This document shows, piece after piece, positions 1,972 through 22,130 of a DNA stretch of 64,000 nt. The stretch spans positions 612,056-676,055 of the forward strand of contig CAZVQU010000001.1 in assembly GCA_964629655.1 (NCBI GenBank), read 5' to 3'. Every line of letters starts with the position of its first letter. The first letter of the stretch is position 1. This DNA comes from an uncultured Planctomycetia bacterium (lineage in GTDB: Bacteria > Omnitrophota > Gorgyraeia > Duberdicusellales > 4484-171). Position numbers and translations under genes: made by a program. The notes beneath the pieces are model-generated. The model saw only the letters and a program-made list of their open reading frames with translations, had not been told where the DNA came from and did not search any database.

Positions 1972-1981
1972 ACTTCCCCTG

Positions 1982-3244: not shown

Positions 3245-3283
3245 CCCTTCTAATCTCCCTCTAAAAAATTTTTATTTTTCTCC

Positions 3284-3311
3284 TTGACAAGAGGAAAATG
3301 CGTGGTATATT
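3284..3311 (+). promoter_or_regulatory. Sigma70-like promoter for the sulfur/siroheme operon
   Basis: TTGACA at 3284-3289, a 16-nt spacer, then an extended -10 TGgTATATT ending at 3311. Confidence 0.4.
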
Positions 3312-3438
3312 CTAATTACTAGGGAAGCAATAGAAATAGTAGTAATTGATAAATGGTAATGTTCTGGGGGCTTATTGGGTCTCTATTTTTTTAAAGATAT
3401 TCACTATTAATCTGATAGAAAAGGTAGTATTAATACAT

Positions 3439-3692: not shown

Positions 3693-4403
3693 ATGAGTCT
3701 ATTAGGTAAGAGAGAAGACCTAAAAATATTGGTTGAAAAGTTGAATTTTAAGGAGAAGGTTGAGCGTTCCTTAGCCCTTATTGAGGAGGCTTACCAGAAG
3801 TATCGAAATGGTTTAGTTGTCGCTAACAGTCTGGGCAAGGATTCAGTTGTAGTTTGGGATCTCGCCAAGCGGGTTAATCCAAAAATACCGGGGTTCATAG
3901 TAACTACAAGATTTAAACCCAAAGAGACCATCCAATTCATGGATGAAGAGGTAGCAAGATATCCGGAATTAAAGGTGTACAAGAATGATATTGAAATACC
4001 TGATAAGTTGTATGAGACCGATCCCGACCGGTGTTGTGATTTATTAAAGGTCGAACCAGTAAAGCGTGCAGTAGAAGAGTTAAAGGTTACTTGTTGGGTT
4101 ACCGGCCTGCGCTGTACAGAAGGCCGTACCCGTACAGATTATGGAGAGGTTGAAGAGAGGGACAAGGGGTTGATTAAACTGAATCCAATTCTTATTTGGA
4201 AAGAGAGAGAAGTATGGCAGTATTTAGCTCTTTATGGAGTTAAGGTAAATCCTTTGTATGGTGAGGGGTATAGGTCTTTAGGCTGTCAACCCTGCACTAA
4301 GATTACCAATGATGATAACGAGCGGGCTGGACGCTGGATAGGTACTAGTAAGTGTGGCGGAGAGTGTGGAATTCACACTCGGCCTTTAAAGGCAGAAAAG
4401 TAG
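3693..4403 (+). CDS. cysH: Phosphoadenylyl-sulfate / adenylyl-sulfate reductase (thioredoxin-dependent, Fe-S type)
   Basis: PP-loop SLGKDSVV, a CC...CxxC cysteine set (DRCCDLL and GCQPCT) typical of [4Fe-4S] APS reductases, and a C-terminal ECGIH motif. The RBS is AGGAGG. Confidence 0.8.
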   Translation: MSLLGKREDLKILVEKLNFKEKVERSLALIEEAYQKYRNGLVVANSLGKDSVVVWDLAKRVNPKIPGFIVTTRFKPKETIQFMDEEVARYPELKVYKNDIEIPDKLYETDPDRCCDLLKVEPVKRAVEELKVTCWVTGLRCTEGRTRTDYGEVEERDKGLIKLNPILIWKEREVWQYLALYGVKVNPLYGEGYRSLGCQPCTKITNDDNERAGRWIGTSKCGGECGIHTRPLKAEK

Positions 4404-4417
4404 GCAGGGAGGGGGAG

Positions 4418-8135: not shown

Positions 8136-8137
8136 GG

Positions 8138-9397
8138 ATGAAAAGAGATACAAAGAATAGAGCACTTTTTGACCGGGCTAAGGAACATCTAGTTGGTGGG
8201 GTAAATAGTCCGGTGCGTTCGTTTAACTATATTGGTGCAGAGCCAATATTAATTAAACAAGGCAAAGGCTCTAGAGTTTTCGACTATGACCGAAATAGTT
8301 ATATTGATTATGTTCTTTCGTTCGGGGCTTTATTCTTAGGCCATGCTCATAAAAGAGTTGTCAAAAGCATAAGGAGAAGAGCAAAAAAAGGCTTTGGATT
8401 TGGGGCTACGAGTTTTGAGGAGATAGAACTGGCAAGATTAATTAGTGAAGCGATTCCAGTTTTGGAGAAAATCCGTTTTGTTAATTCTGGGACTGAAAGT
8501 CTGATGAGTGCAATTCGTTTGGCAAGAGGTTATACCGGCAGAGAAAAAATAGTAAAATTTAACAATGCCTATCACGGACATGCTGATTACCTTTTAACTA
8601 AAGGTGGGTCAGGCTTAGCTACCTTAAATATATCTAGTAGTCAGGGTGTACCCGATGATTTTATAAAACATACAATTGTGTTAGATTGCGCCGATAAGGC
8701 TTTGATAAAGGAGACATTTCAAAAACATGCTCAAGATATAGCCGCAGTCGTTATAGAACCAATAGGCGGAAATTACGGGGTGGTTAGGCCTGATAAAGGT
8801 TTTCTTCAATATTTAAGAGAGATCACCCAAAGATATAAAGCCCTACTCATATTTGATGAGGTTATTACAGGTTTTAGATTTAGATTTGGCTCGGTAGCAG
8901 AAATTTTTGGGGTTTGTCCGGATTTAATTTGTTTGGGGAAGATTATTGGCGGAGGATTACCAATAGGTGCTTTTGGCGGCAAGAGAAACATTATGGATAA
9001 ACTCGCTCCCCTAGGAGAAGTCTACCAAGCATCAACCTTTGCTGGAAATCCGATTGTGATGAAAGCAGGATTTGCTACTCTGAGTGCATTGGCATCGCTT
9101 AAGGATAGGTATAGCTTAGTAGAGCAATTGGCCGGCGAACTCGTATATAGCTTTAAGCAAGTAGCTAAACACCACAATATTGATTTAACAATATCTAGTT
9201 ATCGGACAATGTTCAGCTTAAAGTTTAAACAAAAGAATAAATTCCGTTTGTTTTACAAGAGAATGCTTGAAGAAGGAGTCTATCTTGCTCCTTCGGAATT
9301 TGAGGCGAACTTTTTGTCTTTCGCACACACCAAGAGAGATGTCGAGGAGACAAAACAGGCGGCTAGGAGAGCCTTTAAGAGTATAAGTATATATTAG
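8138..9397 (+). CDS. hemL: Glutamate-1-semialdehyde 2,1-aminomutase
   Basis: LVGGVNSPVRSF N-terminal motif and a class-III aminotransferase fold. The ATG at 8138 is preferred over the track start at 8120. Confidence 0.85.
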   Translation: MKRDTKNRALFDRAKEHLVGGVNSPVRSFNYIGAEPILIKQGKGSRVFDYDRNSYIDYVLSFGALFLGHAHKRVVKSIRRRAKKGFGFGATSFEEIELARLISEAIPVLEKIRFVNSGTESLMSAIRLARGYTGREKIVKFNNAYHGHADYLLTKGGSGLATLNISSSQGVPDDFIKHTIVLDCADKALIKETFQKHAQDIAAVVIEPIGGNYGVVRPDKGFLQYLREITQRYKALLIFDEVITGFRFRFGSVAEIFGVCPDLICLGKIIGGGLPIGAFGGKRNIMDKLAPLGEVYQASTFAGNPIVMKAGFATLSALASLKDRYSLVEQLAGELVYSFKQVAKHHNIDLTISSYRTMFSLKFKQKNKFRLFYKRMLEEGVYLAPSEFEANFLSFAHTKRDVEETKQAARRAFKSISIY

Positions 9398-9415
9398 GTA
9401 AAGAGAGAGGATGAG

Positions 9416-10132
9416 ATGAGTGAGAAAAATATTGACTATGGTGGTTTAAAGAAACGAGGGTTTTTAAGAGAAAGACAAGAAGGCTTCTTTACTCTGAGAA
9501 CACGTGGGCCTTCAGGAAATTATAGCCAGAAGCACTTAGCAGGCTTAGCTAAAATTTCAGAGGACTATGCTCGAGGGTTTGTCCATCTTACGGTTCGTCA
9601 AGGAATCGAGATTCCTTTTATAAAGTTTGAACATATATTAAAAGTTGAGAAAGAAGTAAACCGGCTCGGTGTTAAGTTCGGGACTTCCGGGCTGCGTTTG
9701 AGAGCTACTACTGCCTGTCCGGGCAGCAATTGGTGCAAAAGTGGTCTTGTTGATACCTTTTTTCTTTTTAACCGGATAGAAGAAAAGGGAATCAGTTGTG
9801 GTTTAGAATTGCCGCATAAATTTAAAATTGTTATTTCCGGGTGCCCCAATACTTGTACAAGGGTTCAAGCCTCTGAGATAGGAATTCATGGAGCAGTGGA
9901 TGCAGAGAGTCCGGATAAAAGAATTGGCTATTGTCTATATTTAGGTGGGTGTGGCGGAAAGACTCCGCGTATCGGATTTAAGCTAAGTAAAATTTTTACT
10001 GAAGATGAGGTTCTATCCGTGATTGAGAGGGTAGTTATTTTCTATAAAGAAAATGCTAAGCCACGCCAACGCTTTGCTTTGTTGATTGAGGAGATCGGTA
10101 AGGATAATTTCTTAAAGCAAATAGGCTTTTAA
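9416..10132 (+). CDS. Small siroheme-dependent sulfite/nitrite reductase hemoprotein (low-molecular-weight assimilatory type)
   Basis: Nitrite/sulfite reductase ferredoxin-like half-domain with the siroheme-[4Fe-4S] cysteine motifs TACPGSNWC and SGCPNTC. The RBS is AGAGAGG. Confidence 0.65.
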   Translation: MSEKNIDYGGLKKRGFLRERQEGFFTLRTRGPSGNYSQKHLAGLAKISEDYARGFVHLTVRQGIEIPFIKFEHILKVEKEVNRLGVKFGTSGLRLRATTACPGSNWCKSGLVDTFFLFNRIEEKGISCGLELPHKFKIVISGCPNTCTRVQASEIGIHGAVDAESPDKRIGYCLYLGGCGGKTPRIGFKLSKIFTEDEVLSVIERVVIFYKENAKPRQRFALLIEEIGKDNFLKQIGF

Positions 10133-10160
10133 GACTAAAAAGAATAGATATTATTGCTTC

Positions 10161-10188
10161 TTGACAATTTTTTACTTAGTAATACAAT
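10161..10188 (+). promoter_or_regulatory. Sigma70-like promoter upstream of the Rrf2 regulator gene
   Basis: TTGACA 10161-10166, a 16-nt spacer, TACAAT 10183-10188. Confidence 0.45.
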
Positions 10189-10217
10189 TTGAATACTAAG
10201 ACTATTTAATTAATTGG

Positions 10218-10229
10218 ATTACTAGTAAT
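10218..10229. promoter_or_regulatory. Perfect 12-bp palindrome in the 5' leader of the Rrf2 gene (candidate autoregulatory operator)
   Basis: ATTACTAGTAAT is self-complementary. It is flanked by AATT and lies between the predicted -10 and the RBS GGGAGGAG. Confidence 0.35.
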
Positions 10230-10241
10230 TGGGAGGAGATT

Positions 10242-10682
10242 ATGAAAATTTCAACACGTACCAGATATGGAACAAGATTAATGCTAAGTCTAGCTTTAAA
10301 TTACGGTAAAGGACCATTTTTGTTGAAAGATGTTGCTGAGGGAGAACAGATCTCAGAAAAATATTTAAGCCAGATAATTATACCTTTAAAAGCTAAAGGG
10401 TTGGTGAATTCTTTTCGCGGTGCTCACGGAGGATATACTTTGGCAAAGGTGCCTTCTCAAATAAGTATCAAAGAAATAGTTGAAGCCTTAGAAGGAGGGC
10501 TTAATCTCGTAGGACGGGTCAAAGACGCTTCTTCTTGCAGCCAGGTCTCGATACGGGTTACTCACAATATTTGGAATGAGTTAAGTGAGAAAATGGCTAA
10601 GACGCTTGGTTCAATAACCTTAGATGATTTAGTGAAGGAGTCTAAGGCAAAAGGCAATAGGGTTTTAATGTACAACATCTAA
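10242..10682 (+). CDS. Rrf2-family transcriptional regulator (CymR/IscR-like)
   Basis: N-terminal wHTH TRYGTRLMLSLA...GPFLLKDVAE...ISEKYLSQII and the GGYTLAK motif. It has only two Cys, so it is probably not a cluster-binding IscR. Confidence 0.8.
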   Translation: MKISTRTRYGTRLMLSLALNYGKGPFLLKDVAEGEQISEKYLSQIIIPLKAKGLVNSFRGAHGGYTLAKVPSQISIKEIVEALEGGLNLVGRVKDASSCSQVSIRVTHNIWNELSEKMAKTLGSITLDDLVKESKAKGNRVLMYNI

Positions 10683-10693
10683 TAGGCCATAGC

Positions 10694-10711
10694 TTGTTAA
10701 ATAGTTAACAA
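10694..10711. promoter_or_regulatory. Inverted repeat TTGTTAA-ATAG-TTAACAA immediately upstream of the ThiI-like gene start
   Basis: 7-bp arms with a 4-nt spacer, ending 5 nt before the ATG at 10716. It could be an operator or an RBS-occluding hairpin. Confidence 0.3.
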
Positions 10712-10715
10712 TATA

Positions 10716-11705
10716 ATGAAAGCAATTGCCTTATTCTCCGGTGGACTGGATAGTACCTTAGCGATAAAGACCATTACTGAACAAGGGGTAGATGTTATAG
10801 CCTTGAATTTCTTTACTCCCTTCTGTCGTTGCGAGAGGTCAAAAGGCTGTGGGTCATTAATCAAGGATATGGCTAAGGAGCTTGGCGTAAAGATAAAAAT
10901 GGTTTGTTTAGGCCAGGATTATTTAGATATGATAAAAGACCCCGAACATGGATATGGTAAAAATATCAATCCCTGTATTGATTGTAGAATATTTAAGTTT
11001 AGACGAGCTAAAGGGGTTATGAAAGAAGAAGGGGCATCTTTTGTTATTACCGGGGAGGTCTTAGGACAAAGGCCGATGTCTCAGCATCGCCAGGCTTTGC
11101 GAACAATTGAAACCAAGGCCGGTCTAGAAGGGTTGGTTTTAAGACCTTTGTCGGCAAAGCTTTTTGCTCCTACTATAGCTGAAGAGCAAGGATGGGTAAG
11201 GAGAGAGGATTTACTGGAGATAAGTGGCAGGACTCGGAAGCCTCAGATTCGGTTAGCTTCTCATTGGGGGATAAAGAATTATCCTTGTCCAGCTGGAGGC
11301 TGTCTCTTAACAGATCATCATTTTTGCCAAAGACTAAAGGATCTTCTTAAACACGAAGAAATTAATATTAATAATACCGAGCTTTTAAAACTTGGCAGGC
11401 ATTTTCGCCTGAATCCTAAATTCAAACTAATTGTAGGCAGAGACGAAAAGGAAAACCAGAAGATTTTAAACTTAGCTCAAGAAGGAGATTTTTGCTTTGA
11501 ACCTAAAGATTTGCCAGGACCAACAGGAATCGGCAGGGGCCAACTTGATGAATCTGTAAAGATATTGTCTTCTCGGATAATAGCCCGTTACACTTCTCAA
11601 GAAGAAAAAGTAGATGTATTAGTCAGAACTATTCCCCAGAACCGGGGAGAAACCCTTTCTGTGAAGGCTATCGGCCAAGAGAAGATTAGAGAATACATAA
11701 TCTAA
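10716..11705 (+). CDS. ThiI-like PP-loop ATP pyrophosphatase / sulfurtransferase that lacks a THUMP domain and carries a Cys cluster
   Basis: [11 protein letters not shown]-loop in the first 15 residues. [14 protein letters not shown] and LRPL match the ThiI adenylation domain. Extra cysteines (CRCERSKGC and PCIDC) suggest a sulfide-dependent enzyme with an [Fe-S] cluster. Confidence 0.6.
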
Positions 11706-11730
11706 GCATACAGTGAAAAAGGAGGATAAA

Positions 11731-12642
11731 ATGAACATTGCCGAAAATATCACTCAACTAGTAGGGAATACTCCTTTGGTGAAGCTAGGCAAGCTCAGTG
11801 CCGGGATTGATGCTACCTTAGTAGTCAAACTAGAGTCTTTTAACCCTTGTTCAAGCGTTAAAGACAGAATTGGGTTGGCGATGATAGAAGATGCTGAGAG
11901 GAAGGGAAAGATTAACAAAGATACCGTTATTGTTGAACCGACTAGCGGCAATACCGGGATTGCTTTGGCTTTTGTCTGTGCTCAAAGAGGATATCGATTG
12001 GTTTTAACTATGCCCGAGAGCATGTCTTTGGAGAGAAGAAAACTACTATCCTGGTTTGGTGCCGAGCTAGTTTTGACACCGGCTGAGGGAGGGATGAAAG
12101 GTGCGATTGAAGAGGCCGAGGAGCTTCTTAAAAAGTATCCTAATGCTTTTATGCCCCAACAATTTAAGAACCCGGCTAATCCTAAAATACACCAAGAGGT
12201 TACAGCTGAAGAGATTTGGCGCGATACTAATGGGGAAATTGATATTTTAATCTCCGGTGTTGGTACCGGAGGAACAATTACCGGCGTAGCGGAGGCTCTT
12301 AAGAAAAAGAAGCCTGAGTTTGAAGCAATCGCTTTAGAGCCAGCAAAATCTCCTATTCTCTCTGGCGGTAAACCCGGTTCACACAAGATCCAAGGCATTG
12401 GCGCAGGTTTTGTTCCTGAGGTATTAAGGAGAGATTTAATAGATGAGATAATTTGCATAGAGGATGAAGATGCAATCTCTATGGCTGATCGGATTGCAAA
12501 AGAGGAAGGAATCCTGGTAGGGAATTCTAGCGGAGCAGCAGTCTGGGCCGGTTTAGAAATTGCTAGGCGTCCAGAAAATAAAGGTAAACTTATTGTAGTA
12601 ATCTTACCAGATACAGGGGAGAGATACTTATCTACTTGGTAG
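11731..12642 (+). CDS. cysK: Cysteine synthase (O-acetylserine or O-phosphoserine sulfhydrylase, PLP-dependent). The track start at 11713 is a GTG; the ATG at 11731 follows AAAAGGAGG.
   Basis: [10 protein letters not shown], the SVKDRIG PLP-lysine motif, and the GTGGT glycine loop. Confidence 0.8.
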
Positions 12643-12671
12643 TAAGTAACCCTGTAATATCAAGGAGGTGA

Positions 12672-13889
12672 ATGATGTCTAAGACAATAGCTGAGATTAA
12701 TGAAAAGATTAAGAAAGGGCAGGTGGTTGTTGTCACTGCTGAGGAGATGATAGGAATCGTTAAAGAAAAAGGAGCTAAAGCTGCGGCCGAAGAAGTGGAT
12801 GTAGTAACTACAGCTACCTTTGGCCCAATGTGTTCTTCAGGTGCCTATCTCAACATCGGGCATGCTAAGCCTAAGATAAAGCTAGGTGGGGGAAAGACTA
12901 CCCTAAATAAAATTGATACATATGCGGGTTTTGCTGCAGTTGATCTTTACATTGGAGCAACTGCCCTAGCTGACGATGATCCCAGGAATAAAGTTTTTCC
13001 GGGAAAATTCAAGTATGGCGGTGGGCATGTAATTGAAGATTTAGCAGCCGGGAAAGATATTGTTTTAGAGGGTGCTGCTTATGGGACAGATTGCTATCCA
13101 GGTAAAGAGCTTAAGACACTGATTAACATAAAAGACATCAACGAAGCAGTGCTTTTCAATCCTAGGAATCTGTATCAAAATTACAATATTGCTGTTAACT
13201 TATCTGACAAGACCATTTATACCTATATGGGAACCTTAAGACCAAAGGTAGGCAATGCAAACTATTGTAGTGCTGGACAACTTTCCCCATTTCTTAATGA
13301 CCCTCTTTACAGAACTATTGGTATTGGTACCAAGATATTCTTAGGCGGAGGCATTGGTTATGTTTCTTGGTGGGGAACTCAACATAATCCTGGAGTTAAG
13401 AGAGCTGACAATAAGACTCCTCTTACGCCAGCAGGAACAGCTGCTGTTATTGGTGACTTAAAACAGATGAGCGATAAGTGGCTTAAGGGGGTTAGTTTCT
13501 TAGGGTATGGAGTAACTCTTAGTGTGGGAATTGGTGTACCTATTCCGATACTCGATGAAGAAATGGCTCAGTTTACTGCTGTATCTGATGATCAACTCTC
13601 TGCGAGCATAGTCGATTATAGTAAAGCTTACCCTCAAGGAATTCCTGAATCTTTAGGAAGAGCTACTTATGCGGAACTTAAAACTGGGAAAATAACTGTA
13701 AGAGGAAGAGAAGTTCCTACCGGGGCAATATCAAGCTATCCTAAGGCAAGAGAGATAGCTGATGAACTTAAAACCTGGATTAAGAAAGGCGACTTTCTTT
13801 TGACTGAGCCAGTGGCTGAATTTCCCGGCCCGGATTCGGGATACAAATTTAAACCTTTAAAGGTCAGAGAAGTAAAAGGAGGTAAGTAG
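12672..13889 (+). CDS. COG1900/DUF39-family protein (the methanogen MA1821-type enzyme for sulfide-dependent homocysteine formation)
   Basis: About 400 aa with the characteristic Gly-rich blocks (KLGGGKTTLN, KYGGGHVIEDL, FLGGGIGYVSWWG). The RBS is AAGGAGG. Confidence 0.6.
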   Translation: MMSKTIAEINEKIKKGQVVVVTAEEMIGIVKEKGAKAAAEEVDVVTTATFGPMCSSGAYLNIGHAKPKIKLGGGKTTLNKIDTYAGFAAVDLYIGATALADDDPRNKVFPGKFKYGGGHVIEDLAAGKDIVLEGAAYGTDCYPGKELKTLINIKDINEAVLFNPRNLYQNYNIAVNLSDKTIYTYMGTLRPKVGNANYCSAGQLSPFLNDPLYRTIGIGTKIFLGGGIGYVSWWGTQHNPGVKRADNKTPLTPAGTAAVIGDLKQMSDKWLKGVSFLGYGVTLSVGIGVPIPILDEEMAQFTAVSDDQLSASIVDYSKAYPQGIPESLGRATYAELKTGKITVRGREVPTGAISSYPKAREIADELKTWIKKGDFLLTEPVAEFPGPDSGYKFKPLKVREVKGGK

Positions 13890-13891
13890 TT

Positions 13892-14299
13892 ATGTACTCC
13901 AAAAAAATAGTTCTACACTTTCCTTCCGATCTTGTTAACAAGTCGATAATTTATAGATTATCAAAAGACTTTGATTTAGAGTTCAATATTCTCAAAGCTC
14001 TTGTTAATCCTGACGAGGAAGGATTGATGGTCCTTGAGCTAAAGGGTGAGAAAGATGAGTATACCAGAGCAGTAAAATACCTAGAAAAAGAGAAGGTTAG
14101 AATTCAGACCTTATCTAAAGATGTAATTCGCGATGAAGATAAGTGTGTTGATTGCGGATTATGTGTCGCTGTCTGTCCGGTAGAGGCCTTTGAAGTAGAT
14201 TCTGATTCAAGAAAGATAGAATTCCACGACGATAAGTGTATTGCTTGTGAGATGTGCGTGAAAGTTTGTCCTTACAAGGCTATGGAGGTAAACTTCTAA
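13892..14299 (+). CDS. NIL-domain ferredoxin with 2x[4Fe-4S] (the MA1822-type partner of COG1900)
   Basis: N-terminal NIL-like domain (about 75 aa), then CVDCGLCVAVCP and CIACEMCVKVCP. The start is 3 nt after the previous stop. Confidence 0.6.
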   Translation: MYSKKIVLHFPSDLVNKSIIYRLSKDFDLEFNILKALVNPDEEGLMVLELKGEKDEYTRAVKYLEKEKVRIQTLSKDVIRDEDKCVDCGLCVAVCPVEAFEVDSDSRKIEFHDDKCIACEMCVKVCPYKAMEVNF

Positions 14300-14308
14300 G
14301 CGAAATTT

Positions 14309-14581
14309 ATGGCAGTAATAAGAATACCTTTGTTATTTCAAGAGGCAGTAGGTGGAGCTACCCAATTAGAGGTTAAGGCAGATAATATTAGCGAGTTGAT
14401 TGGTAACTTAACTAATGAATTTCCTGATCTCAAAGAGAAATTCTATGATACCCAAGGGAGTTTAAGTAAGTTTATCAACATCTATGTTAATGGGGAAGAT
14501 TCCCGGTTTTTAGAAGGCGAGAAAACTCACCTCAATGATAGAGATATCATAGATATTATTCTTCCTATTGCCGGAGGGTAG
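14309..14581 (+). CDS. ThiS/MoaD/CysO-family sulfur-carrier protein ending in Gly-Gly
   Basis: 90 aa with a beta-grasp-like composition. The C-terminal ...LPIAGG stop is the hallmark diglycine for adenylation and thiocarboxylation. Confidence 0.6.
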   Translation: MAVIRIPLLFQEAVGGATQLEVKADNISELIGNLTNEFPDLKEKFYDTQGSLSKFINIYVNGEDSRFLEGEKTHLNDRDIIDIILPIAGG

Positions 14582-14596
14582 GAAAGATTAATTAAG

Positions 14597-15379
14597 ATGG
14601 CACTTAGTCAAGAACAACTCACCAGATACCGGCGAAATATAACCATTCCGGCCATAGGCAGCAAGGGTCAAGAAAAGCTTCTTAACTCGAAGGTGTTAAT
14701 TATTGGTACCGGTGGCCTAGGCTCATCTTGTGCCTATTATTTAGCCGCTGCCGGCATTGGAAAGATTGGCCTAGTTGATTTTGATTTGGTAGAATTAGAT
14801 AACTTGCAGAGGCAAATTCTTCATGCAACCAGAGATATTGGAAAGTCGAAGGTTATATCCGCCAAAGATAAGCTTAACAATCTCAATCCCGAGATAGAGA
14901 TTACTCCCCATAAAGTTAAGTTATCTTCTGAGAATATATTAGATATTGTTAAAGACTATTTGTTATTAGTAGAGTGCTCAGATAACTTTTTAACAAAATA
15001 TCTATTAAATGATACCGCTATTCTTACTAAAAAACCATTGTTCTATGCAGCAGTGTTAAGATTTGAGGGTCAAGCTATGACTATTCTTCCCAGGCAGACT
15101 GCCTGTTATCGCTGTCTATTCCCTAAACCACCCTCCGAAAACGAATTCATCTCACCCAAAGATGCCGGGATTCTAGGAGCTGTTGCTGGGACGATAGGGT
15201 TGGTCCAGGCCAACGAAGTCTTAAAATACATTCTAAATATAGGAGAATTATTGACCAATAAGCTCTTAACTTTTGATTCTCTTGCTACAACTTTTAAGAA
15301 AATAAAAGTTCAGCCTAATCCGAGTTGTCCGGTATGCGGCCAAAATCCTACAATAAGAGAGATTACCGGCAGTAAATAA
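14597..15379 (+). CDS. ThiF/MoeB/HesA-family E1-like adenylyltransferase with a zinc CxxC...CxxC motif and no rhodanese domain
   Basis: LIIGTGGLGSSCAYYLAAAGIGKIGLVDFD nucleotide-binding motif, plus ACYRC and SCPVC. Confidence 0.8.
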   Translation: MALSQEQLTRYRRNITIPAIGSKGQEKLLNSKVLIIGTGGLGSSCAYYLAAAGIGKIGLVDFDLVELDNLQRQILHATRDIGKSKVISAKDKLNNLNPEIEITPHKVKLSSENILDIVKDYLLLVECSDNFLTKYLLNDTAILTKKPLFYAAVLRFEGQAMTILPRQTACYRCLFPKPPSENEFISPKDAGILGAVAGTIGLVQANEVLKYILNIGELLTNKLLTFDSLATTFKKIKVQPNPSCPVCGQNPTIREITGSK

Positions 15380-15486
15380 CTCTTCCTGAATGATCAAATA
15401 CAAGGATTGTAAATATATTTAAATCTGGTAGAATATCGCTTGCGTTAGATAGGTAAAGTTAGATAAATTCAAAGTAAGGGGGAGAT

Positions 15487-16272
15487 ATGACCAAGAAGAT
15501 TTTTAGTAGTGTAGGAGAAAAAGAAGTTACCCGGGCAATTGTCGATGAATTTTCAAAGCAGTTCTCAGAGTATACTGAGAGTGATGTAATTATTATTGGT
15601 GCTGGCCCCAGTGGACTTATGGCTGGTAAAGAATTAGCGCTCGCAGGGCTTAAAGTGCTTATTGTCGAGAGAAATAATTACCTTGGCGGCGGTTTCTGGA
15701 TTGGCGGTTATCTTATGAATAAACTTACCGTAAGGGCACCGGCTGAAGAAATTCTAAAAGAGCTGGGAGTTCCTTACAAAGAAACTAATCCCGGGCTTTT
15801 TGTTGCTGATGGCCCCCATGCTTGCTCTAAGCTTATTGCTGCTGCTTGTGATGCCGGGGTTAAAATAGCTAATATGACTGTCTTTGAAGATATTGTCTTA
15901 AGAGAGAAAAATCGTGTAGCTGGCGCAGTAATTAACTGGACTCCGGTTCAAGCCTTACCGCGGCAAATTACCTGCGTTGATCCGGTAGCTATAGAGGGAA
16001 AGATTGTGATTGATGCTACCGGCCATGATGCGATGGTTTGCCAGAAGATGGAAGAAAGAGACCTGCTTAAAACTAGAGGCTATGGAGCAATGTGGGTTGA
16101 GCGCTCTGAGGATTTATTGGTTGAGCATACCGGCGAAGTATCTCCTGGCCTCATAGTCATTGGTATGGCGGTATCGACTATGTATGGGCTTCCTCGAATG
16201 GGCCCTACTTTCGGCGGAATGCTTCTTTCCGGTAAAAGAGGCGCTGAAGTTGTAAAAGAAAAATTAAAGTAG
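15487..16272 (+). CDS. thi4: Thi4-family thiazole synthase. By eye it is the non-suicide, sulfide-dependent type: the yeast catalytic Cys position reads Thr in ...IDATGHDA....
   Basis: FAD-binding [10 protein letters not shown] and the conserved VAGAVINWT...CVDP...IDATGHDA block. The RBS is AAGGGGGAG. Confidence 0.75.
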
Positions 16273-16284
16273 TCTAAGAATAAA

Positions 16285-17103
16285 ATGTCTAGGCGAAGTC
16301 ATCCCGCCAGGGGTACCATTTCTTCTATTTATCTTTATGGGAGTAGTGGCCTGCCAGAGTATAAAGCAGAAGAAATCACCGACTACCTAAAAAACATATA
16401 TCCTAAAGCAAAAACAGAGCAGAGAGGAGATTTCTTCTCCTTCTTGCTTAAAAGTCCGGACTCTCCTGATATTGAGGAGCTTGCCAGAAAAATTACCTGC
16501 TCCCGGGTTCATAGCGTTAGTGAGCAGCTGAAAGAGTTTTCACCCCTTCCCTTAGAGATTGAATATGAGAAAAAAAGGCTTTTGGGGAATAAACAACTAA
16601 AGGGTGTAATCTACGATGGTTTTCATTTACAAAAAATCTGCAGAGAGCTTCTTGGCTTAAAGGAATTTAAACCTTCATCCTGCCATATAATATTTACCAA
16701 CCAGCTATTAGCTAGTTTCGATAGCAATGATCGGCGCTATCATGTCAGAGTCGGTATCTATGGCCGGCCTAATATCATCTCTGTTCCGGGATTAGTAGAA
16801 GCTTTAGCTAAGCCTAAGGAGTACTACATAAAGATGCAGATGGGTGAGGATACCTTGACCTTAAGTCAGGAATTTAAAGGAGAGATTATCGAGTATGAAG
16901 ATACCCGGATTACAGAATTATTAAAAGGTTATTGCCTTCAAGCCCTTTTCTATCACTTGACCGGAGATCCTTTTTGCTCCGATAAAAAATGCCGCCTTTA
17001 TAATGCTCATTGGCAAAAGGAAGCAATCGAAGCCCAGATAGAGGCTGAGTATGAATTTTGCCTCAAGCATGCTGAGATTACTTCACAGTGGAAAAATAGA
17101 TAA
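16285..17103 (+). CDS. Hypothetical protein with conserved Cys/His (possible metal site). It weakly resembles archaemetzincin-type CX4C motifs.
   Basis: 272 aa, no TM segments. Cys/His-containing motifs are CHIIF, H(V)RVGIYGRP and FYHLTGDPFCSDKKCRLYNAHW. It sits between thi4 and the csoR promoter. Confidence 0.35.
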   Translation: MSRRSHPARGTISSIYLYGSSGLPEYKAEEITDYLKNIYPKAKTEQRGDFFSFLLKSPDSPDIEELARKITCSRVHSVSEQLKEFSPLPLEIEYEKKRLLGNKQLKGVIYDGFHLQKICRELLGLKEFKPSSCHIIFTNQLLASFDSNDRRYHVRVGIYGRPNIISVPGLVEALAKPKEYYIKMQMGEDTLTLSQEFKGEIIEYEDTRITELLKGYCLQALFYHLTGDPFCSDKKCRLYNAHWQKEAIEAQIEAEYEFCLKHAEITSQWKNR

Positions 17104-17145
17104 TAAATACAAGGTATTTCTAAGACGGAAAAGATTACTTTTATC

Positions 17146-17176
17146 TTGACATACCCTAGGGGGGTATGGTATAAAT
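17146..17176 (+). promoter_or_regulatory. Promoter with an embedded CsoR-type operator (GC-rich inverted repeat ATACCC-TAGG-GGGGTAT)
   Basis: TTGACA 17146-17151 overlaps ATACCCTAGGGGGGTATGG, and TATAAAT at 17170-17176 is the -10. The repeat arms ATACCC and GGGTAT are reverse complements. It lies 58 nt upstream of csoR. Confidence 0.55.
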
Positions 17177-17233
17177 GGTTTAGGGATAATAGAGATATAA
17201 CAAGGGTATTGGTTTTAAAATACGAGGTGATAA

Positions 17234-17515
17234 ATGGCGCATAAAACAACTCATAGTGAAAATTTGATTGCTCTGCGAAGAATTGAGGGCCAGATTAAAG
17301 GTATCCAGAAAATGGTTGAAGAAAAGAAATATTGTATAGATATCGTCAATCAGGTTCATGCTTCAATAAGTGCTCTTCGCCGAGTAGCTGAGAAAATTCT
17401 CTCTAAACATATGGAACATTGCGTAGTAGATGCCATAAAGGGGAAATCAGAGTCGCAAAGAAAAGAAAAGATAGATGAGGTAATGAGTGTAATAAGAAAA
17501 ATACATAAGATATGA
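17234..17515 (+). CDS. csoR: CsoR/RcnR/FrmR-family metal-sensing transcriptional repressor
   Basis: 93 aa, all-helical. Conserved Cys (KYCIDI) and the H-x-x-x-C pair (HMEHC) sit at CsoR Cu(I)-ligand positions. The RBS is GAGGTG. Confidence 0.75.
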   Translation: MAHKTTHSENLIALRRIEGQIKGIQKMVEEKKYCIDIVNQVHASISALRRVAEKILSKHMEHCVVDAIKGKSESQRKEKIDEVMSVIRKIHKI

Positions 17516-18528
17516 GAGTAGCTAAAACAATTTTTATCTTGACCTTTATTTTAAGCCTAACAGTTCTACATAACGAAATAAAAGCAGGCTCTCTTTACAA
17601 GGAAATAAATATTATTGGTGGTTATTCCGATCTCAACAAATCGGTTGGTAAGGATAATAGGTCATTAAAGAATTCAATTGGCTTTGAGTATTATGATAAG
17701 TTTTCTGACCAATACGGAGATTATTTAACTGCCGATCTTCAAGTGAGATTAGCTTATGATTCTTTAAAGAATTCCAATGATGCCTGGGCTCTTGAGGTTC
17801 ACAATGCTTTTCTAGATTACAAATTAGGCTTAGGTAAGGCTTTACGTGTAGGGCATTTTGATCCCTCATTTGGGCTTGAACCGGTTCTGGATACGCACGG
17901 TACTTTATTCCAGACCTTAGCTCGCAAGAACATTGGTTTTAAAAAAGATTGGGGCACTGGCATAAGAGGTATTCTTGGTGAGTTTGACTATGAACTTTCT
18001 GCTCAAATTGGCTCGGGGATGGGTATTGAGAGAAAAGACGGAAGTTTTTTGCTCAGTAGCAGGCTCGGGACAGCCCAGGATAGAGATTTTCAATACGGGA
18101 TATCTTTGCTCTATGGTGAAGTGCTTGCCAGTAACGAAACAAAGACTATTCCGGCCCCGGAGCTTATCTCAAACCAGGCTATTCTTAAGAAGAGGATAGG
18201 TTTAGATGGCCAATATTCATCCGGCCCTTATCTACTAAAGGGAGAGTTAGTTTATGGCCAGGATTCCAACGATGATATTCTGGGATCGCTCCTTGAGGTT
18301 GATTACGTTCCTCGGTCTATTCAAGAGTTAGAATTTAAACTGCAAGGTCAGTTTTTCTCAAAAGATTTAGGAAATTCTAATCTTCAAGATATAATTGTTG
18401 GCGCTGGATTGGGCTACAAGCTTAATTCTGACCTTACTCTACGGTTAGCTTATTTTCATGATTTTCGCTCATCAAGCGTAGATAAGGATAGGCAGGTGCT
18501 TTTGCAAGTATACTATTATGGGCTTTAA
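17512..18528 (+). CDS. Putative outer-membrane beta-barrel protein (porin-like)
   Basis: Signal peptide, alternating amphipathic beta-strand pattern with many Y/G/D/N, and a C-terminal aromatic end ...VYYYGL. It overlaps the csoR stop by 4 nt. Confidence 0.45.
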   Translation: MRVAKTIFILTFILSLTVLHNEIKAGSLYKEINIIGGYSDLNKSVGKDNRSLKNSIGFEYYDKFSDQYGDYLTADLQVRLAYDSLKNSNDAWALEVHNAFLDYKLGLGKALRVGHFDPSFGLEPVLDTHGTLFQTLARKNIGFKKDWGTGIRGILGEFDYELSAQIGSGMGIERKDGSFLLSSRLGTAQDRDFQYGISLLYGEVLASNETKTIPAPELISNQAILKKRIGLDGQYSSGPYLLKGELVYGQDSNDDILGSLLEVDYVPRSIQELEFKLQGQFFSKDLGNSNLQDIIVGAGLGYKLNSDLTLRLAYFHDFRSSSVDKDRQVLLQVYYYGL

Positions 18529-18529
18529 G

Positions 18530-19213
18530 ATGAGAAAATTTATTTTAAGTTTAATGCTGTGTTTTTTATCAACTTTTGCTTACTCTGATGATGCGTCTGC
18601 AGCAGTTGGCTGTACCTTAAACGACCCGGATCGTGATGTAATCCGTATTTTCCCAGAATCTACCGGTTATCGAACTGATTTTATAAGCATAAAGGAGAAG
18701 GGTGGGGAGATTTTAGCAGAAGAAATAGAAAAGAAGCTCGGCGATAAACTAGATTCTGCTTATGAGTCTTTAGATGTGCCTTATTCTTACTATACCATTC
18801 TTAAAGGCATGGAGGTCATTGGCTACATTCATGGTGTTAACCAGAAAGGAACTTTTGGAGGAATACAGATTATCTTAGCCAGTGATTTAGAGGGTAAGAT
18901 AATAAATCTTTATTATCAGAAGATATCTTCTCCTGAGGCCAGTAAATTTAGAAACAAAAGATTTGTTGACCAGTTCACAGGACTAACACTGGCAGATTTC
19001 TATCGTCATGATGCTTTAGGGGGTAACGAATATTCTTATGACAAAATAGCAGAAATCAAAGATCCAAGCGAAAACAGCAATCAAGATTTTAAAGCCACCT
19101 TAAGAGGCATAAAGAAGAATTTAATCTTACTTGATGAGTTTATATTAAATAGTAAGTATGATCAGGATTATAACAAGATTAATAAAGGAGGTAATAATGA
19201 GAGTGATGATTAG
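18530..19213 (+). CDS. Secreted protein with an FMN-binding-like domain (similar to the NosR/RnfG/NqrC periplasmic domain). The flavinylation motif is not evident.
   Basis: Signal peptide MRKFILSLMLCFLSTFAYS. The core GVNQKGTFGGIQIILASDLEGKIINLYY...FVDQFTG fits an FMN_bind domain. The track start at 18518 precedes the porin stop. Confidence 0.4.
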   Translation: MRKFILSLMLCFLSTFAYSDDASAAVGCTLNDPDRDVIRIFPESTGYRTDFISIKEKGGEILAEEIEKKLGDKLDSAYESLDVPYSYYTILKGMEVIGYIHGVNQKGTFGGIQIILASDLEGKIINLYYQKISSPEASKFRNKRFVDQFTGLTLADFYRHDALGGNEYSYDKIAEIKDPSENSNQDFKATLRGIKKNLILLDEFILNSKYDQDYNKINKGGNNESDD

Positions 19214-19568
19214 CATTTCAGTATGTCTATTGATTATTTTCACCGGAGCATTAATAAGTGGGTGTGGCCGCTTAGAAGAGTATGGAGAAAGAATCTCCAA
19301 TCAAGAAATCACAAAAATTAGTGATATTCTCAAGAAACCAAAGAGTTATGACCAGAAAACACTTATTATTGAGGGCAAGATCATGGTTGAATGTCCTGCT
19401 GGCTGTTGGTTTACTTTAAGAGATGACTCAGGAGTTATCTATGTTGACCTTGGGCCTTCAGGGTTTGCCATAGCTCAGCATACAGGAGATGAGGTTTTAG
19501 TCGTTGGAGAGATTGTAGATAAGAAACCAAATCCAATAATGATCGGAAAAGGGGTGAAGATAAAATGA
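19197..19568 (+). CDS. Small lipoprotein, OB-fold-like, with a CxxGC motif
   Basis: AGGAGG RBS, then an ATG at 19197. There is a lipobox LISGC. The motif ECPAGCWF is followed by beta-rich sequence. The track start at 19158 is upstream of the RBS. Confidence 0.45.
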   Translation: MRVMISISVCLLIIFTGALISGCGRLEEYGERISNQEITKISDILKKPKSYDQKTLIIEGKIMVECPAGCWFTLRDDSGVIYVDLGPSGFAIAQHTGDEVLVVGEIVDKKPNPIMIGKGVKIK

Positions 19569-20749
19569 AATTAGCAATATTAGCCTTTAAGAATCTCAAA
19601 AGAAAAAAGATTCGTTCTTTCCTGACCATAGGAGGAGTTGCTATTGCTGTGGCGGTGTTAGTGAGCCTGATGGGTTTCAATCTTGGCTATCAAAAAGCTC
19701 TAGGCAGTGATATTGATAAGATGGGATATCAGCTCTTAGTTACTGCCAAAGGGTGTCCTTATGAGGCTGCAACGTTAATGTTAAAGGGCGGCGGCGGGTT
19801 ACGCTACATGGAAGAGGATGTATACAATAAGATTGTCCAAGATAGCCGTATAGACAAAGTCACTCCTCAATTAATATACACTGTCTTTGATCCTCAAAGA
19901 AGCGAAGGCCAAGGTGGCTTTGCGATGTACATGGGGATTTTAGATTCTTATCTGGAGTTAAAACCTTGGACTAAATTTAAGAGTGGCCGATGGTTTTCTG
20001 GTGAGGATGTTGAAGAGGTTGTTATGGGCTATGAGGCTGCCGAGGTTGAACAACGTTTGGTTGGTGATAAAATTTTCATTCCAGGCATTGATAGAGTTCT
20101 TAAAGTCGTAGGTATATTTGATAGAACCGGCACCCAAGATGACGGAGTGATATTTTTACCTCTAGCAACTTCACAAAGGATATTTAACCTTCCTGCTAAA
20201 TTAACTGGAATTGGCATAAAGTTAAAAGACATAAGAAAATTAGCAGAGTTTGAAGAAGATTTGTATGATGAGCCAGGCATCCAGGTAATCAGCATGGCTC
20301 AAGTAAGGGGAACAATTCTTAATCTCATATCTTCGGCAAAGATTTTAGTAAACTCAGTAGCGGTAATAGCTATTTTTATAGCAATAATCGGAGTAATAAA
20401 TACTATCCTAATGTCTGTATTTGAGCGAACTCAAGAAATTGGCGTAATGAAAGCTATTGGTGCTTCCAAGCTAGATATTTTTCAAATTATCTGGATCGAA
20501 ACAACTCTTATTTGTGTCTTAGGCGGGGTTGCCGGCAGCCTCGTAGCTATTTTAGGCGGAAACGTAATTGAGCACATATTAAAACAAATCTTGCCTTATG
20601 CTCCTAGTGGGAAGTTAGTGCTTATTACTCCAAATCTTCTCCTAGCCTCATTCCTCGGGGCTATTATTTTGGGATTGATCTCAGGGATTTACCCGGCAGC
20701 TCGGGCAGCATCAATGAGACCGATTGAGGCAATCAGGCGCGGAGGATAA
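19565..20749 (+). CDS. ABC transporter permease of the FtsX/MacB/LolCE family
   Basis: TM1, then a periplasmic domain of about 220 aa, then three C-terminal TM helices with the conserved FtsX region (LMSVFERTQEIGVMKAIGAS). Confidence 0.8.
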   Translation: MKLAILAFKNLKRKKIRSFLTIGGVAIAVAVLVSLMGFNLGYQKALGSDIDKMGYQLLVTAKGCPYEAATLMLKGGGGLRYMEEDVYNKIVQDSRIDKVTPQLIYTVFDPQRSEGQGGFAMYMGILDSYLELKPWTKFKSGRWFSGEDVEEVVMGYEAAEVEQRLVGDKIFIPGIDRVLKVVGIFDRTGTQDDGVIFLPLATSQRIFNLPAKLTGIGIKLKDIRKLAEFEEDLYDEPGIQVISMAQVRGTILNLISSAKILVNSVAVIAIFIAIIGVINTILMSVFERTQEIGVMKAIGASKLDIFQIIWIETTLICVLGGVAGSLVAILGGNVIEHILKQILPYAPSGKLVLITPNLLLASFLGAIILGLISGIYPAARAASMRPIEAIRRGG

Positions 20750-20752
20750 AAT

Positions 20753-21445
20753 ATGAGTGAGTGTATAGTAAGAGGGAAAAAACTAAAAAAAATATATAGG
20801 CTTCCAGCTGAGGACATTGTTGCCTTGAAAGGAATAGACTTTGAAATCCAAAAGGGTGAGTTTGTGGCTGTTATTGGTCCTTCTGGTGCTGGCAAAACTA
20901 CGCTTCTTAATCTCATCGGGTGCTTAGACGGAGTCTCTTCAGGTAATTTAGAGGTCTTAGGATATGATTTATCTAAAGCCAAAGAGAAACATTTGCCTAA
21001 AATACGGAGGAAGAATATCGGGTTTATATTCCAGGAATTCTATTTAATTCCTTCTTTAACTGCTTTGGAGAACGTAGAGCTTTCTTTGCATTTTTCTAGG
21101 CTACCTAAAGAGAACGGCAGAGCAACAGAGATTTTGAAAAGTGTCGGATTGGGAAAACGAATTAACCATTTTCCTAGAGAGCTTTCCGGAGGCGAGATGC
21201 AAAGAGTTGCGATTGCCAGAGCTTTAATTACTTCTCCAGAGATACTTTTAGCTGATGAACCCACAGGAAATTTAGATACTAGAAACACTCAAGGAATTTT
21301 TAGCCTTTTCAGAGAGCTAAATCAAACTGAGGGCATAACTATAGTAGTAGCAACCCATAATATTAAGTTTGGTTATCAATCCGATAAGGTTATCCATTTA
21401 GTTGATGGTAATATTGACAGAGAAGAGAGGATAAAGCATGGATAA
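20753..21445 (+). CDS. ABC transporter ATP-binding protein (MacB/LolD type)
   Basis: Walker A GPSGAGKTT, signature LSGGEMQRV, Walker B LLADEPTG, H-loop ATHN. Confidence 0.85.
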   Translation: MSECIVRGKKLKKIYRLPAEDIVALKGIDFEIQKGEFVAVIGPSGAGKTTLLNLIGCLDGVSSGNLEVLGYDLSKAKEKHLPKIRRKNIGFIFQEFYLIPSLTALENVELSLHFSRLPKENGRATEILKSVGLGKRINHFPRELSGGEMQRVAIARALITSPEILLADEPTGNLDTRNTQGIFSLFRELNQTEGITIVVATHNIKFGYQSDKVIHLVDGNIDREERIKHG

Positions 21446-22130
21446 AGCTATTGAGGCTATCAATTTAAAGAAATACTACACTCGGGGTTCAGAACTGGTT
21501 AAGGCTCTTGATGGAGTTAACATTGCCATAAGAAAAGGTGAAATTATCTCGATAGTCGGGCCGTCTGGCTCAGGTAAGACGACTTTACTTAATTTGGTCA
21601 GCTGTCTGGATCTGCCAACTGACGGAAATATAAAGATAAACGGAGAGGATATTACTAAATTTAAAGAGTCGCAGCTAATTGAAATCAGGCGAAAAAACTT
21701 AGGCTTTATTTTTCAACAGTTCCATCTTATACTTACCTTAACAGTTAGAGAGAACGTAGAGTTACCGTTAATTTTTGCTAAGAAAAATATAAATGCAAAG
21801 AAGATTTCTCAAACCTTAGAAAGAGTCGGGTTAAAAGGGAAAGAAAACCTCAGAGTTGATACCTTAAATGGAGGGGACAAGCAGAGAGTAGCTATTGCCC
21901 GTGCCCTTGTGAATGATCCCAAGATCCTTATTGCCGATGAGCCTACTGGAGAGCTGGAGACAGAAGTCCGCAACTCTATTTTAGATCTTTTTAGAAAGTT
22001 AGCCCAGTCAGGTTTAGCGATTGTTGTTGCGACTCATGATCTAGAGCTTGCTGAGGCCGCGGAGAGAATAATCTATCTTCAGGATGGTAAAATAGTATCA
22101 AAGTCTGAATCAAGCCTGTACTTTAGTTAA
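21438..22130 (+). CDS. Second ABC transporter ATP-binding protein, with a variant signature motif
   Basis: Walker A GPSGSGKTT, signature LNGGDKQRV (Ser to Asn), Walker B ILIADEPTGELE. It overlaps the upstream ATPase by 8 nt. Confidence 0.8.
   Translation: MDKAIEAINLKKYYTRGSELVKALDGVNIAIRKGEIISIVGPSGSGKTTLLNLVSCLDLPTDGNIKINGEDITKFKESQLIEIRRKNLGFIFQQFHLILTLTVRENVELPLIFAKKNINAKKISQTLERVGLKGKENLRVDTLNGGDKQRVAIARALVNDPKILIADEPTGELETEVRNSILDLFRKLAQSGLAIVVATHDLELAEAAERIIYLQDGKIVSKSESSLYFS

Follow-up and report, generated by a model that had tools for sequence, protein, structure and literature searches.

Two adjacent genes in a 64-kb stretch of DNA from an uncultured bacterium of the Omnitrophota (64,000 nucleotides of contig CAZVQU010000001.1; hereafter the window) encode a small ThiS/MoaD-family sulfur carrier and a MoeB/ThiF-type adenylating enzyme (E1), and the question addressed here is which enzyme they supply with sulfur. 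The pair lies in a co-directional plus-strand sulfur cluster that runs from a 3'-phosphoadenosine 5'-phosphosulfate (PAPS) reductase through siroheme and heme-precursor genes, a small sulfite reductase and an Rrf2-family regulator to a PP-loop protein, and continues with CysK, COG1900, a NIL-domain ferredoxin (NIL-Fer), the carrier, the E1, the thiazole synthase Thi4 and a DUF6775 protein (Table 1). The stop codon of the NIL-Fer gene is 9 nucleotides (nt) 5' of the carrier start codon, and the gaps that follow are 15 nt (carrier-E1), 107 nt (E1-Thi4) and 12 nt (Thi4-DUF6775). A preliminary description of this stretch had placed the pair among CysK, COG1900/NIL-Fer and Thi4, and our analysis finds the same genes at the same positions; it had further proposed that the carrier serves cysteine synthesis and/or COG1900, with the PP-loop protein as its sulfur loader. 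We tentatively favour a different client, namely Thi4.

Table 1. Features of the sulfur cluster in the window, followed by examples of a gene family found in other COG1900 loci
Feature	Position	Strand	Basis
PAPS or adenosine 5'-phosphosulfate (APS) reductase	3693..4403	+	PF01507, E 7e-42
Siroheme and heme-precursor genes serving sulfite reductase, after the PAPS/APS reductase	4352-9397		NAD_binding_7; annotation of the syntenic locus L001
Small siroheme-type sulfite/nitrite reductase (238 aa)	9416..10132	+	PF01077, E 1e-29; PF03460
Best sigma-70-like promoter match of the cluster (TTGACA-16-TACAAT, 11/12), 5' of the Rrf2 gene	10161..10188	+	Consensus match only
Rrf2-family (CymR/IscR-like) regulator, first in cluster	10242..10682	+	PF02082, E 3e-36
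ThiI/MnmA-like PP-loop ATPase with C-terminal NFACT-R_2 RNA-binding domain	10716..11705	+	PF18297, E 1.5e-22; PF02568, E 6e-11
CysK-type O-acetylserine sulfhydrylase	11713..12642	+	TIGR01139, 464 bits (cut-off 351)
COG1900/DUF39 (HcyBio) homocysteine-forming enzyme	12672..13889	+	PF01837, E 3e-147
NIL domain and 2x[4Fe-4S] ferredoxin, small subunit of L-ASST (L-aspartate-semialdehyde sulfurtransferase)	13892..14299	+	PF09383; Fer4 families
ThiS/MoaD-family sulfur carrier, CysO/MetO-like branch	14309..14581	+	PF02597; CysO profile match; AlphaFold2 model
MoeB/ThiF-type adenylating E1	14597..15379	+	PF00899; E. coli MoeB alignment; NF004281
Cys-type ("suicide-type") Thi4 thiazole synthase	15487..16272	+	PF01946, E 3e-71; TIGR00292, 257 bits
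DUF6775/DUF7001 protein	16285..17103	+	PF20565, E 2e-79
PRK04334 open reading frame, examples (and 20 further loci)	L067 11649-12371; L051 12225-12974; L075 11930-12649		NCBIfam PRK04334

The carrier and its activating enzyme

The carrier is a protein of 90 residues whose C-terminus, LPIAGG, is followed directly by the stop codon, so that the diglycine is free. It matches Pfam ThiS (PF02597) with an E value of 1e-10 and 42.4 bits against a cut-off of 22.5, and stays below the NCBIfam cut-offs for SAMP1 (43.9 versus 60) and moaD_arch (39.4 versus 49.5). A profile search of PDB retrieved Mycobacterium tuberculosis CysO (3dwg_C, E 1e-13) and 4n6e_B (1.2e-13), with SAMP1 and MoaD behind them. In a fold search with Foldseek, an AlphaFold2 model of the carrier (pLDDT 71.8) matched beta-grasp carriers, with TM-scores of 0.83 for CysO 3dwg_C and 4n6e_B, 0.74-0.85 for SAMP1 and 0.6-0.7 for MoaD and Urm1. 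In the structural ranking CysO stands above SAMP1, MoaD-related proteins and Urm1, with the thiamine-type ThiS far below, and the sequence profile ranks the relatives of the carrier in the same order. The suggestion in the preliminary description that this is a beta-grasp carrier comparable to CysO is thereby borne out.

The diglycine is conserved as well, being invariant in all 12 close sequences (that of the window and its 11 close homologs). Since the word-indexed homolog search recovers only carrier relatives of at least 77% identity, conservation was judged by an exhaustive profile search of representatives, which yielded 3800 relatives. Of the 150 best distant representatives, 142 have GG where the profile ends; 52 of these 142 stop exactly there and the remainder have short tails or fusions past it. 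Among the distant homologs are also tandem ThiS-ThiS proteins (P0132, P0151, P0232) and ThiS-ThiF fusions (P0208, P0216, P0229, P0238, P0263, P0268), whose internal GG would need proteolytic release, and proteins with Cys-rich tails, for instance CCCCCCL after the GG. By descent the carrier is one of the amino-acid sulfur carriers that make up the CysO/MetO clade. Within that clade, a neighbour-joining tree of the 90-residue carriers does not separate MetO-type from CysO-type proteins and leaves the carrier of the window on a long basal branch; its identity to the positional ortholog in the related locus L171 is only 37%, though the COG1900 proteins of the two are 84% identical. The carrier thus evolves fast, and its nearest sequence neighbours are a weak guide to its function.

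The E1 has 260 residues and consists of a single ThiF domain (PF00899, E 1e-76, residues 11-246), with no rhodanese or any further domain by Pfam or NCBIfam. It aligns end to end with E. coli MoeB (1jw9, 182 bits): the motifs C170-Y-R-C173 and C244-P-V-C247 match the zinc cysteines of that enzyme, and the nucleotide-binding GTGGLGS also aligns, in agreement with the earlier description of a zinc-type ThiF/MoeB E1 without rhodanese. The best NCBIfam matches are MoeB models, of which the subfamily NF004281 is just passed (267.3 bits, cut-off 266), followed by UbaA, the SAMP-activating E1 (278 bits, under its cut-off of 450). Where MoeB has Cys187, equivalent to C184 of ThiF, the E1 has Pro187, and the crossover-loop cysteine is likewise missing from the related E1s of L171 and L174. 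This cysteine is needed for SAMP-type conjugation.

Judged by their families, the carrier and the E1 almost certainly make a protein thiocarboxylate. The E1 would adenylate the C-terminal glycine of the carrier, after which sulfide would attack the acyl-adenylate; a direct attack is suggested by the make-up of the E1, which, lacking both a rhodanese domain and the crossover-loop cysteine, could itself form neither a persulfide nor a thioester. The PAPS reductase and the small sulfite reductase of the same cluster would probably provide the sulfide, the latter enzyme being its likely source. A JAMM protease would not be needed, because the carrier already ends at GG.

A four-gene block with Cys-type Thi4

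The Thi4 encoded downstream of the E1 has the active-site motif ITCVDP, whose Cys falls on that of the active-site motif SCMDP in plant THI1 (1rp0); the catalytic archaeal and Thermovibrio Thi4s have His at that position (LHIDP). This assignment is supported by the published numbering of the metal ligands of Thi4, according to which the catalytic enzymes carry His (PMC8454699). Thi4 is therefore not the bystander that the preliminary description took it for, as a ThiS/ThiF relay has been proposed for precisely this Cys-type (PMC13325395). Near COG1900, Cys-type Thi4s occur in 10 loci and His-type Thi4s in 12, and DUF6775 follows only the former. The Cys-type gene is followed by DUF6775 in 5 of the 11 loci with a Cys-type enzyme outside the window's genus (L023, L036, L051, L080, L171). 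The His-type (LH[VI]DP) mostly lies directly 5' of COG1900, and no such locus has DUF6775, a window-type E1 or a carrier from the same family as that of the window.

We then compared nine closely related Omnitrophota lineages, whose COG1900 proteins are at least 79% identical and all of which retain CysK-COG1900-NIL(-Fer). In the window's genus and in L171 the four-gene module carrier-E1-Thi4(Cys)-DUF6775 is present after NIL-Fer, the order in L171 being NIL-Fer-ThiS-ThiF-Thi4(Cys)-DUF6775. None of the four genes is found in L005, L172, L175 and L176. L005 matches the gene order of the window over 14 genes, up to and including NIL-Fer; carrier-E1-Thi4-DUF6775, and nothing else, is then missing, and the order picks up again at the CsoR gene. 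The deletion in L176 follows the same pattern, and in L172 NIL-Fer is followed by a 63-residue open reading frame (ORF) and then by the biotin genes found after DUF6775 in L001, a close relative. A His-type Thi4 is present in L173 and L177, which have neither carrier nor E1 nor DUF6775. Across 87 COG1900 loci, with the window's genus left out, an E1 accompanies Cys-type Thi4 plus DUF6775 in 4 of 5 loci and occurs in 5 of 82 otherwise (Fisher p = 0.0003). Together, these observations suggest that carrier, E1, Cys-type Thi4 and DUF6775 come and go together, as one unit next to the Rrf2-CysK-COG1900-NIL-Fer operon.

These findings accord with a recent survey of more than 400 Cys-type Thi4 genes from 26 phyla (Oliveira-Filho et al. 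2026, ACS Omega, PMC13325395), in which DUF6775 was the commonest neighbour, found in two of every three genomes, followed by genes of sulfur generation and relay including ThiF and ThiS; CysK, NifS, ThiI, CysI, BioB and HcyBio were further neighbours, and representative genomes with a Cys-type Thi4 were without ThiG. The window, too, contains no ThiG gene in its 64 kb. In a pilot experiment of the same study, an Omnitrophica Thi4 complemented a delta-thiG strain of E. coli better when the host thiF-thiS genes were intact, and the authors proposed either thiocarboxylate donation from ThiS to Thi4 or repair of dehydroalanine (PMC13325395).

From the gene neighbourhoods and this one published pilot experiment we infer, tentatively, that the thiocarboxylate relay of the window mainly serves the Cys-type Thi4 rather than the cysteine or homocysteine enzymes. 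The thiocarboxylate would most likely give its sulfur to Thi4, which it might do either as a direct donor or by re-sulfurating or persulfidating the active-site Cys and so sparing the enzyme from consumption.

Neighbourhoods of carrier and COG1900, and the competing clients

Scanning metagenome contigs for relatives of the carrier gave 80 carrier-centred loci, with carriers 36-53% identical to that of the window; the narrower carrier alignment (A4) was used for this, as the initial one (A3) was too diverse for locus scanning. In 54 of the 80 a threonine-synthase-like (MetM-type) pyridoxal-phosphate (PLP) enzyme of about 420 residues is encoded directly upstream, and the other partners are an E1 (42), a JAB protease (29) and a CysK-like enzyme (19); about 70 of these nearest metagenomic relatives lie in MetM-like or CysK/JAB clusters. 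None of the 80 contains COG1900, Thi4, DUF6775 or the PP-loop protein. The 420-residue enzyme scores as ThrC (TIGR00260, 300 bits), which fits the remark that MetM, the homocysteine synthase dependent on MetO thiocarboxylate, is often misannotated as threonine synthase (GapMind 2026). A homolog of the small sulfite reductase is also present in four of the MetM-carrier-E1 loci.

The carriers of this family are further linked to the NIL domain: an ORF of about 80 residues, consisting of NIL alone and devoid of Fe-S motifs, adjoins the carrier or is fused to it in 46 of the 80 loci, mostly starting 6-35 nt after the carrier gene (loci L091-L170; e.g., L096 1491-2011 and L104 7989-8507). NIL accompanies the carrier in 36 of 45 MetM-type versus 3 of 17 CysK/JAB-type loci (p = 1e-5), and ThiS-NIL fusions constitute a family of 3161 proteins (P0139, P0176, P0193 and P0282-P0400 among the NIL-linked proteins). 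Other Omnitrophota have such a fusion after a MetM-like gene, with a JAB-ThiS-CysK triad and CysDNH upstream. Both homocysteine routes, that of L-ASST and that of the MetM-type thiocarboxylate clusters, thus have the NIL domain in common; in the literature searched we found no publication describing the association of NIL with MetM and the carrier, which is apparently unreported.

In the reverse direction, a COG1900-centred scan with one genome per species gave 80 loci from many phyla, with a conserved core Rrf2-CysK-COG1900-NIL-Fer: Rrf2 lies 5' of CysK-COG1900, and NIL-Fer beside COG1900, in most of them. A sensitive hidden Markov model of the carrier family detected a carrier within 10 kb in 7 of the 80, and a clear same-family carrier was present in only two, L051 from Dehalococcoides mccartyi and the truncated L067, both from Dehalococcoidia and both with an E1. 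The carriers of L009 (after MnmA), L023 and L048 (with cysteine desulfurases) were unconvincing or part of other systems, that of L027 had a weak score and was likewise unconvincing, and the three tandem carriers of L075 were set aside as MoaD-like on the basis of their motifs. The order in D. mccartyi is Rrf2-E1-carrier(GG+NK)-ThrC-like fragment-JAB-Thi4(Cys)-DUF6775-CysK-COG1900-NIL-Fer; the fragment, a 112-residue ORF at L051 6223-6561 between carrier and JAB, shows a weak similarity (TIGR00260, E 3e-5) to the N-terminal part of threonine synthase/MetM and may be the remnant of a MetM gene displaced by COG1900.

Two further proteins recur around COG1900. An ORF of about 241 residues, matched by NCBIfam PRK04334 and by no Pfam family, follows NIL-Fer in 23 of the 80 loci and is probably COG2122/MA1715-like (UPF0280); it has no match in the 64-kb window or in any carrier-centred locus. 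The protein combining a PP-loop with NFACT-R_2 recurs in the Rrf2-CysK-COG1900 clusters of about 10 of the 80 loci and of 6 of 7 close relatives, with or without carrier and E1 (L005, L009, L012, L020, L056, L061, L062, L080, L084, L171, L173-L177), and its PDB matches, ThiI and MnmA, are weak. It is a probable RNA thiolase, that is, a consumer of sulfur, and its cysteine motifs hint at an Fe-S cluster. A Fer4/AF_0155 protein of 221-285 residues, for which the window has no counterpart, comes before it in four close relatives.

Several observations weigh against Thi4 as the client. The supply of a thiocarboxylate to any Thi4 is so far a proposal, here as in PMC13325395. The relatives of the carrier and the E1 belong to amino-acid clusters and keep company with Thi4 or DUF6775 in none of the 80 carrier-centred loci, and a thiamine-type ThiS fits the carrier structure much worse than CysO does. 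The carrier lies hard against NIL-Fer, but the E1 and the 107-nt gap, which holds a weak promoter-like site, part it from Thi4. In L174, whose COG1900 is 81% identical to that of the window, a closely related E1 (310 bits against that of the window) and a ThiS occur with no Thi4 within 7 kb: a short thiamine-type ThiS of 78 residues ending in MGGG lies with the E1 at 2005-3431, upstream of Rrf2-PPloop-CysK-COG1900-NIL-Fer. The E1 lineage of the window therefore pairs with two different carrier types, in the window and in L174. Lastly, the neighbourhood counts are small and all centred on COG1900, and genomes without a local carrier could encode one elsewhere.

The proposal of the preliminary description, in which the thiocarboxylate is the sulfur donor for amino-acid synthesis in the operon through COG1900 and/or CysK, is a less probable but serious alternative. 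In such a reaction the thiocarboxylate would combine with aspartate semialdehyde and, after an acyl shift and elimination, yield a thioaldehyde, which a two-electron reduction through the ferredoxin would convert to homocysteine, a hybrid of the two known anaerobic homocysteine routes. The ancestry of the carrier speaks for it, as its seven nearest neighbours within the CysO/MetO clade are all MetM-associated, and so does the NIL link, which is the best evidence for COG1900: in homocysteine-type clusters NIL is the partner that typifies this carrier family, and here the carrier abuts the NIL-Fer of L-ASST. In addition, L051 and L067 have same-family carriers and E1s in COG1900 clusters, L174 has its E1 and ThiS beside CysK-COG1900, the usual sulfur-trafficking partner COG2122 is absent from the window, and the physiological sulfur donor of L-ASST is unsettled (PMC12068725; PMC5764234). 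For CysK, there are the JAB-ThiS-CysK triads of other Omnitrophota, and a CysK-type sulfhydrylase is no ground to exclude use of a carrier, because the JAB-ThiS-linked enzyme of L087 is itself a TIGR01139 cysK. However, COG1900 occurs in none of the carrier-centred loci and a clear same-family carrier in two of the COG1900 loci, and 6 of the 9 close lineages keep CysK-COG1900-NIL-Fer with no carrier or E1 nearby, the pair tracking Cys-type Thi4 and DUF6775 instead. Moreover, in methanogens and Desulfovibrio L-ASST runs on sulfide, a Cys54 persulfide and COG2122 (PMC12068725; PMC5764234), and the DUF39 and thiocarboxylate pathways are treated as separate in the literature (PMC5764234). A specific version, in which the thiocarboxylate passes to COG1900/NIL-ferredoxin so that the two pathways merge and NIL docks or regulates the carrier, is rather improbable; the role for NIL is suggested by its company with the carrier family in MetM-type clusters and its fusion to ferredoxin in L-ASST. 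The Cys-type Thi4 might also be kept alive by this thiocarboxylate pool, in what would be a multi-client, sulfide-buffering relay, and a shared thiocarboxylate pool is compatible with both the Thi4 and the COG1900/CysK readings. Thi4 is favoured by where the block is present or absent among close relatives, by joint occurrence with DUF6775, and by the survey and pilot experiment of the published study; the amino-acid enzymes are supported mainly by carrier ancestry and the NIL link.

It is quite improbable that the pair serves a MetM-like or CysM-like PLP enzyme encoded elsewhere and is located here only as sulfur-assimilation genes gather under Rrf2. Such a role would agree with the MetM- or CysK/JAB-type clusters in which the nearest relatives of both proteins lie and with other Omnitrophota that encode JAB-ThiS-CysK plus MetM-like-ThiS-NIL, but the partner enzyme is normally immediately adjacent in this carrier family (54/80), no MetM-like, JAB or second ThiS gene is present in the 64-kb window, and COG1900 and CysK already provide for homocysteine and cysteine. 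A TtuB/TtuC-like pair giving sulfur to the PP-loop protein for tRNA thiolation, or conversely a PP-loop protein that loads the carrier, is very improbable. The PP-loop ATPase does have an RNA-binding domain and shares the operon, and a weak carrier follows the MnmA gene of L009; nonetheless, its gene lies 2.6 kb and three genes away from the carrier, it is found in none of the carrier-centred loci, and it occurs beside COG1900 regardless of carrier or E1, so that its earlier casting as loader finds no backing. Equally remote is a MoaD/MoeB pair for molybdopterin or a SAMP/UbaA-like conjugation system: the E1 does match MoeB best, just passing the subfamily model, and UbaA next, and the carrier matches the SAMP1 and archaeal MoaD models, but these carrier matches fall under their cut-offs and MoaD structures rank below CysO. 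The molybdenum cofactor (Moco) role was rejected for want of Moco genes in the window, while against conjugation stand the missing crossover-loop Cys of the E1 and the absence of a JAMM gene from the window. An anti-phage ubiquitin-like system was also rejected, as PADLOC returned only generic E1-domain similarity and no defence-system membership.

Surrounding genes and relation to known systems

Among the other products of the cluster, CysK is closest in PDB to M. tuberculosis CysK1 (2q3b, 434 bits), Cys54 and Cys141 of COG1900 are invariant in the alignment, and the DUF6775 protein, a family described in PMC13325395, has an archaemetzincin-like fold with a site of three Cys and one His and no HExxH. 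The sole strong promoter-like site precedes Rrf2, although promoter-like sites were fewer than in shuffled controls and terminator-like sites about as many, so that these scans do not discriminate. No thiamine pyrophosphate or S-adenosylmethionine riboswitch was found in 9000-17600, and a U7 match on the minus strand inside Thi4 (E 0.05) was dismissed as chance. The 64-kb window has no Moco (MoaE, MoaA), thiamine-pyrimidine, methionine-synthase, MetM-like, second ThiS or JAB/JAMM gene.

Straight after DUF6775 (17234-22130) come a CsoR-type metal-sensing repressor, three ORFs without Pfam match (338, 231 and 136 residues) and then a MacB/FtsX-type ABC system; YHS/cupredoxin genes at the same junction in L005, L171 and L176 suggest a copper-related island. 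On the 5' side (841-3244) lie a 376-residue ORF without Pfam match and a 420-residue radical-SAM protein, the gene of which also adjoins the cluster in L173, L174 and L177. Over the whole window (1-64000) only two real genes are on the minus strand, and every 2-kb bin has a positive GC skew, a pattern consistent with a single replichore and a very strong gene-strand bias.

If the carrier serves Thi4, the module would offer a compact test case for whether "suicide" thiazole synthases, given a sulfur relay, are capable of catalytic turnover, which matters for thiamine economics and crop engineering. If it serves COG1900, the carrier would be the physiological donor of sulfur to L-ASST that has long been sought, at least for some bacteria. 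In either case, NIL-domain proteins are regular members of MetM-type thiocarboxylate homocysteine clusters, and this shared module links the two routes.

The carrier and the E1 are of known families, and the cluster type was published in 2026. In the Thi4(Cys)-DUF6775-ThiF-ThiS clusters of that study (PMC13325395), as here, Thi4 is directly followed by DUF6775, a ThiF-family E1 and a ThiS-family carrier lie within a ten-gene window, CysK, CysI, ThiI, BioB and HcyBio are among the neighbours; that study also put an Omnitrophica example to an experimental test. Unlike in that survey, which did not resolve the carrier subfamily, the carrier here is of the CysO/MetO kind and not of the thiamine ThiS kind, and the NIL-ferredoxin of L-ASST lies right next to the module. 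With CysO-CysM-Mec+/MoeZ of M. tuberculosis and MetO-MetM of Streptomyces the window shares a carrier whose best match is CysO and whose relatives lie beside MetM- or CysK-like enzymes, E1 and JAB; it differs in having neither a MetM-like or CysM-type enzyme nor a JAMM protease, in a carrier that already ends in GG, in an E1 without the rhodanese domain of the MoeZ/Uba4 type, and in that its only PLP sulfhydrylase is CysK-type and located 1.7 kb upstream of the carrier. L-ASST (COG1900/DUF39, NIL-ferredoxin and COG2122; MA1821/MA1822/MA1715) is represented immediately upstream by COG1900 with its conserved Cys and by NIL-Fer, and shares the NIL domain with the MetM/carrier clusters, whereas the defined system has no ThiS-like carrier or E1 and its COG2122 is missing from the window. 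In ThiS-ThiF-ThiG and in BexX/CysO 2-thiosugar synthesis a thiocarboxylate made by a MoeB/ThiF-type E1 gives sulfur to a thiazole-synthase-type enzyme, and BexX is a precedent for a borrowed CysO-type carrier (4n6e, the second-best structural match); Thi4, however, is unrelated to ThiG and BexX and differs in chemistry, and the Cys through which ThiF forms its acyl-disulfide intermediate is missing from the E1 of the window. Set against these systems, what may be new is a Thi4-linked carrier from the CysO/MetO clade, the block-wise gain and loss of the four-gene module and the association of NIL with MetM and the carrier.

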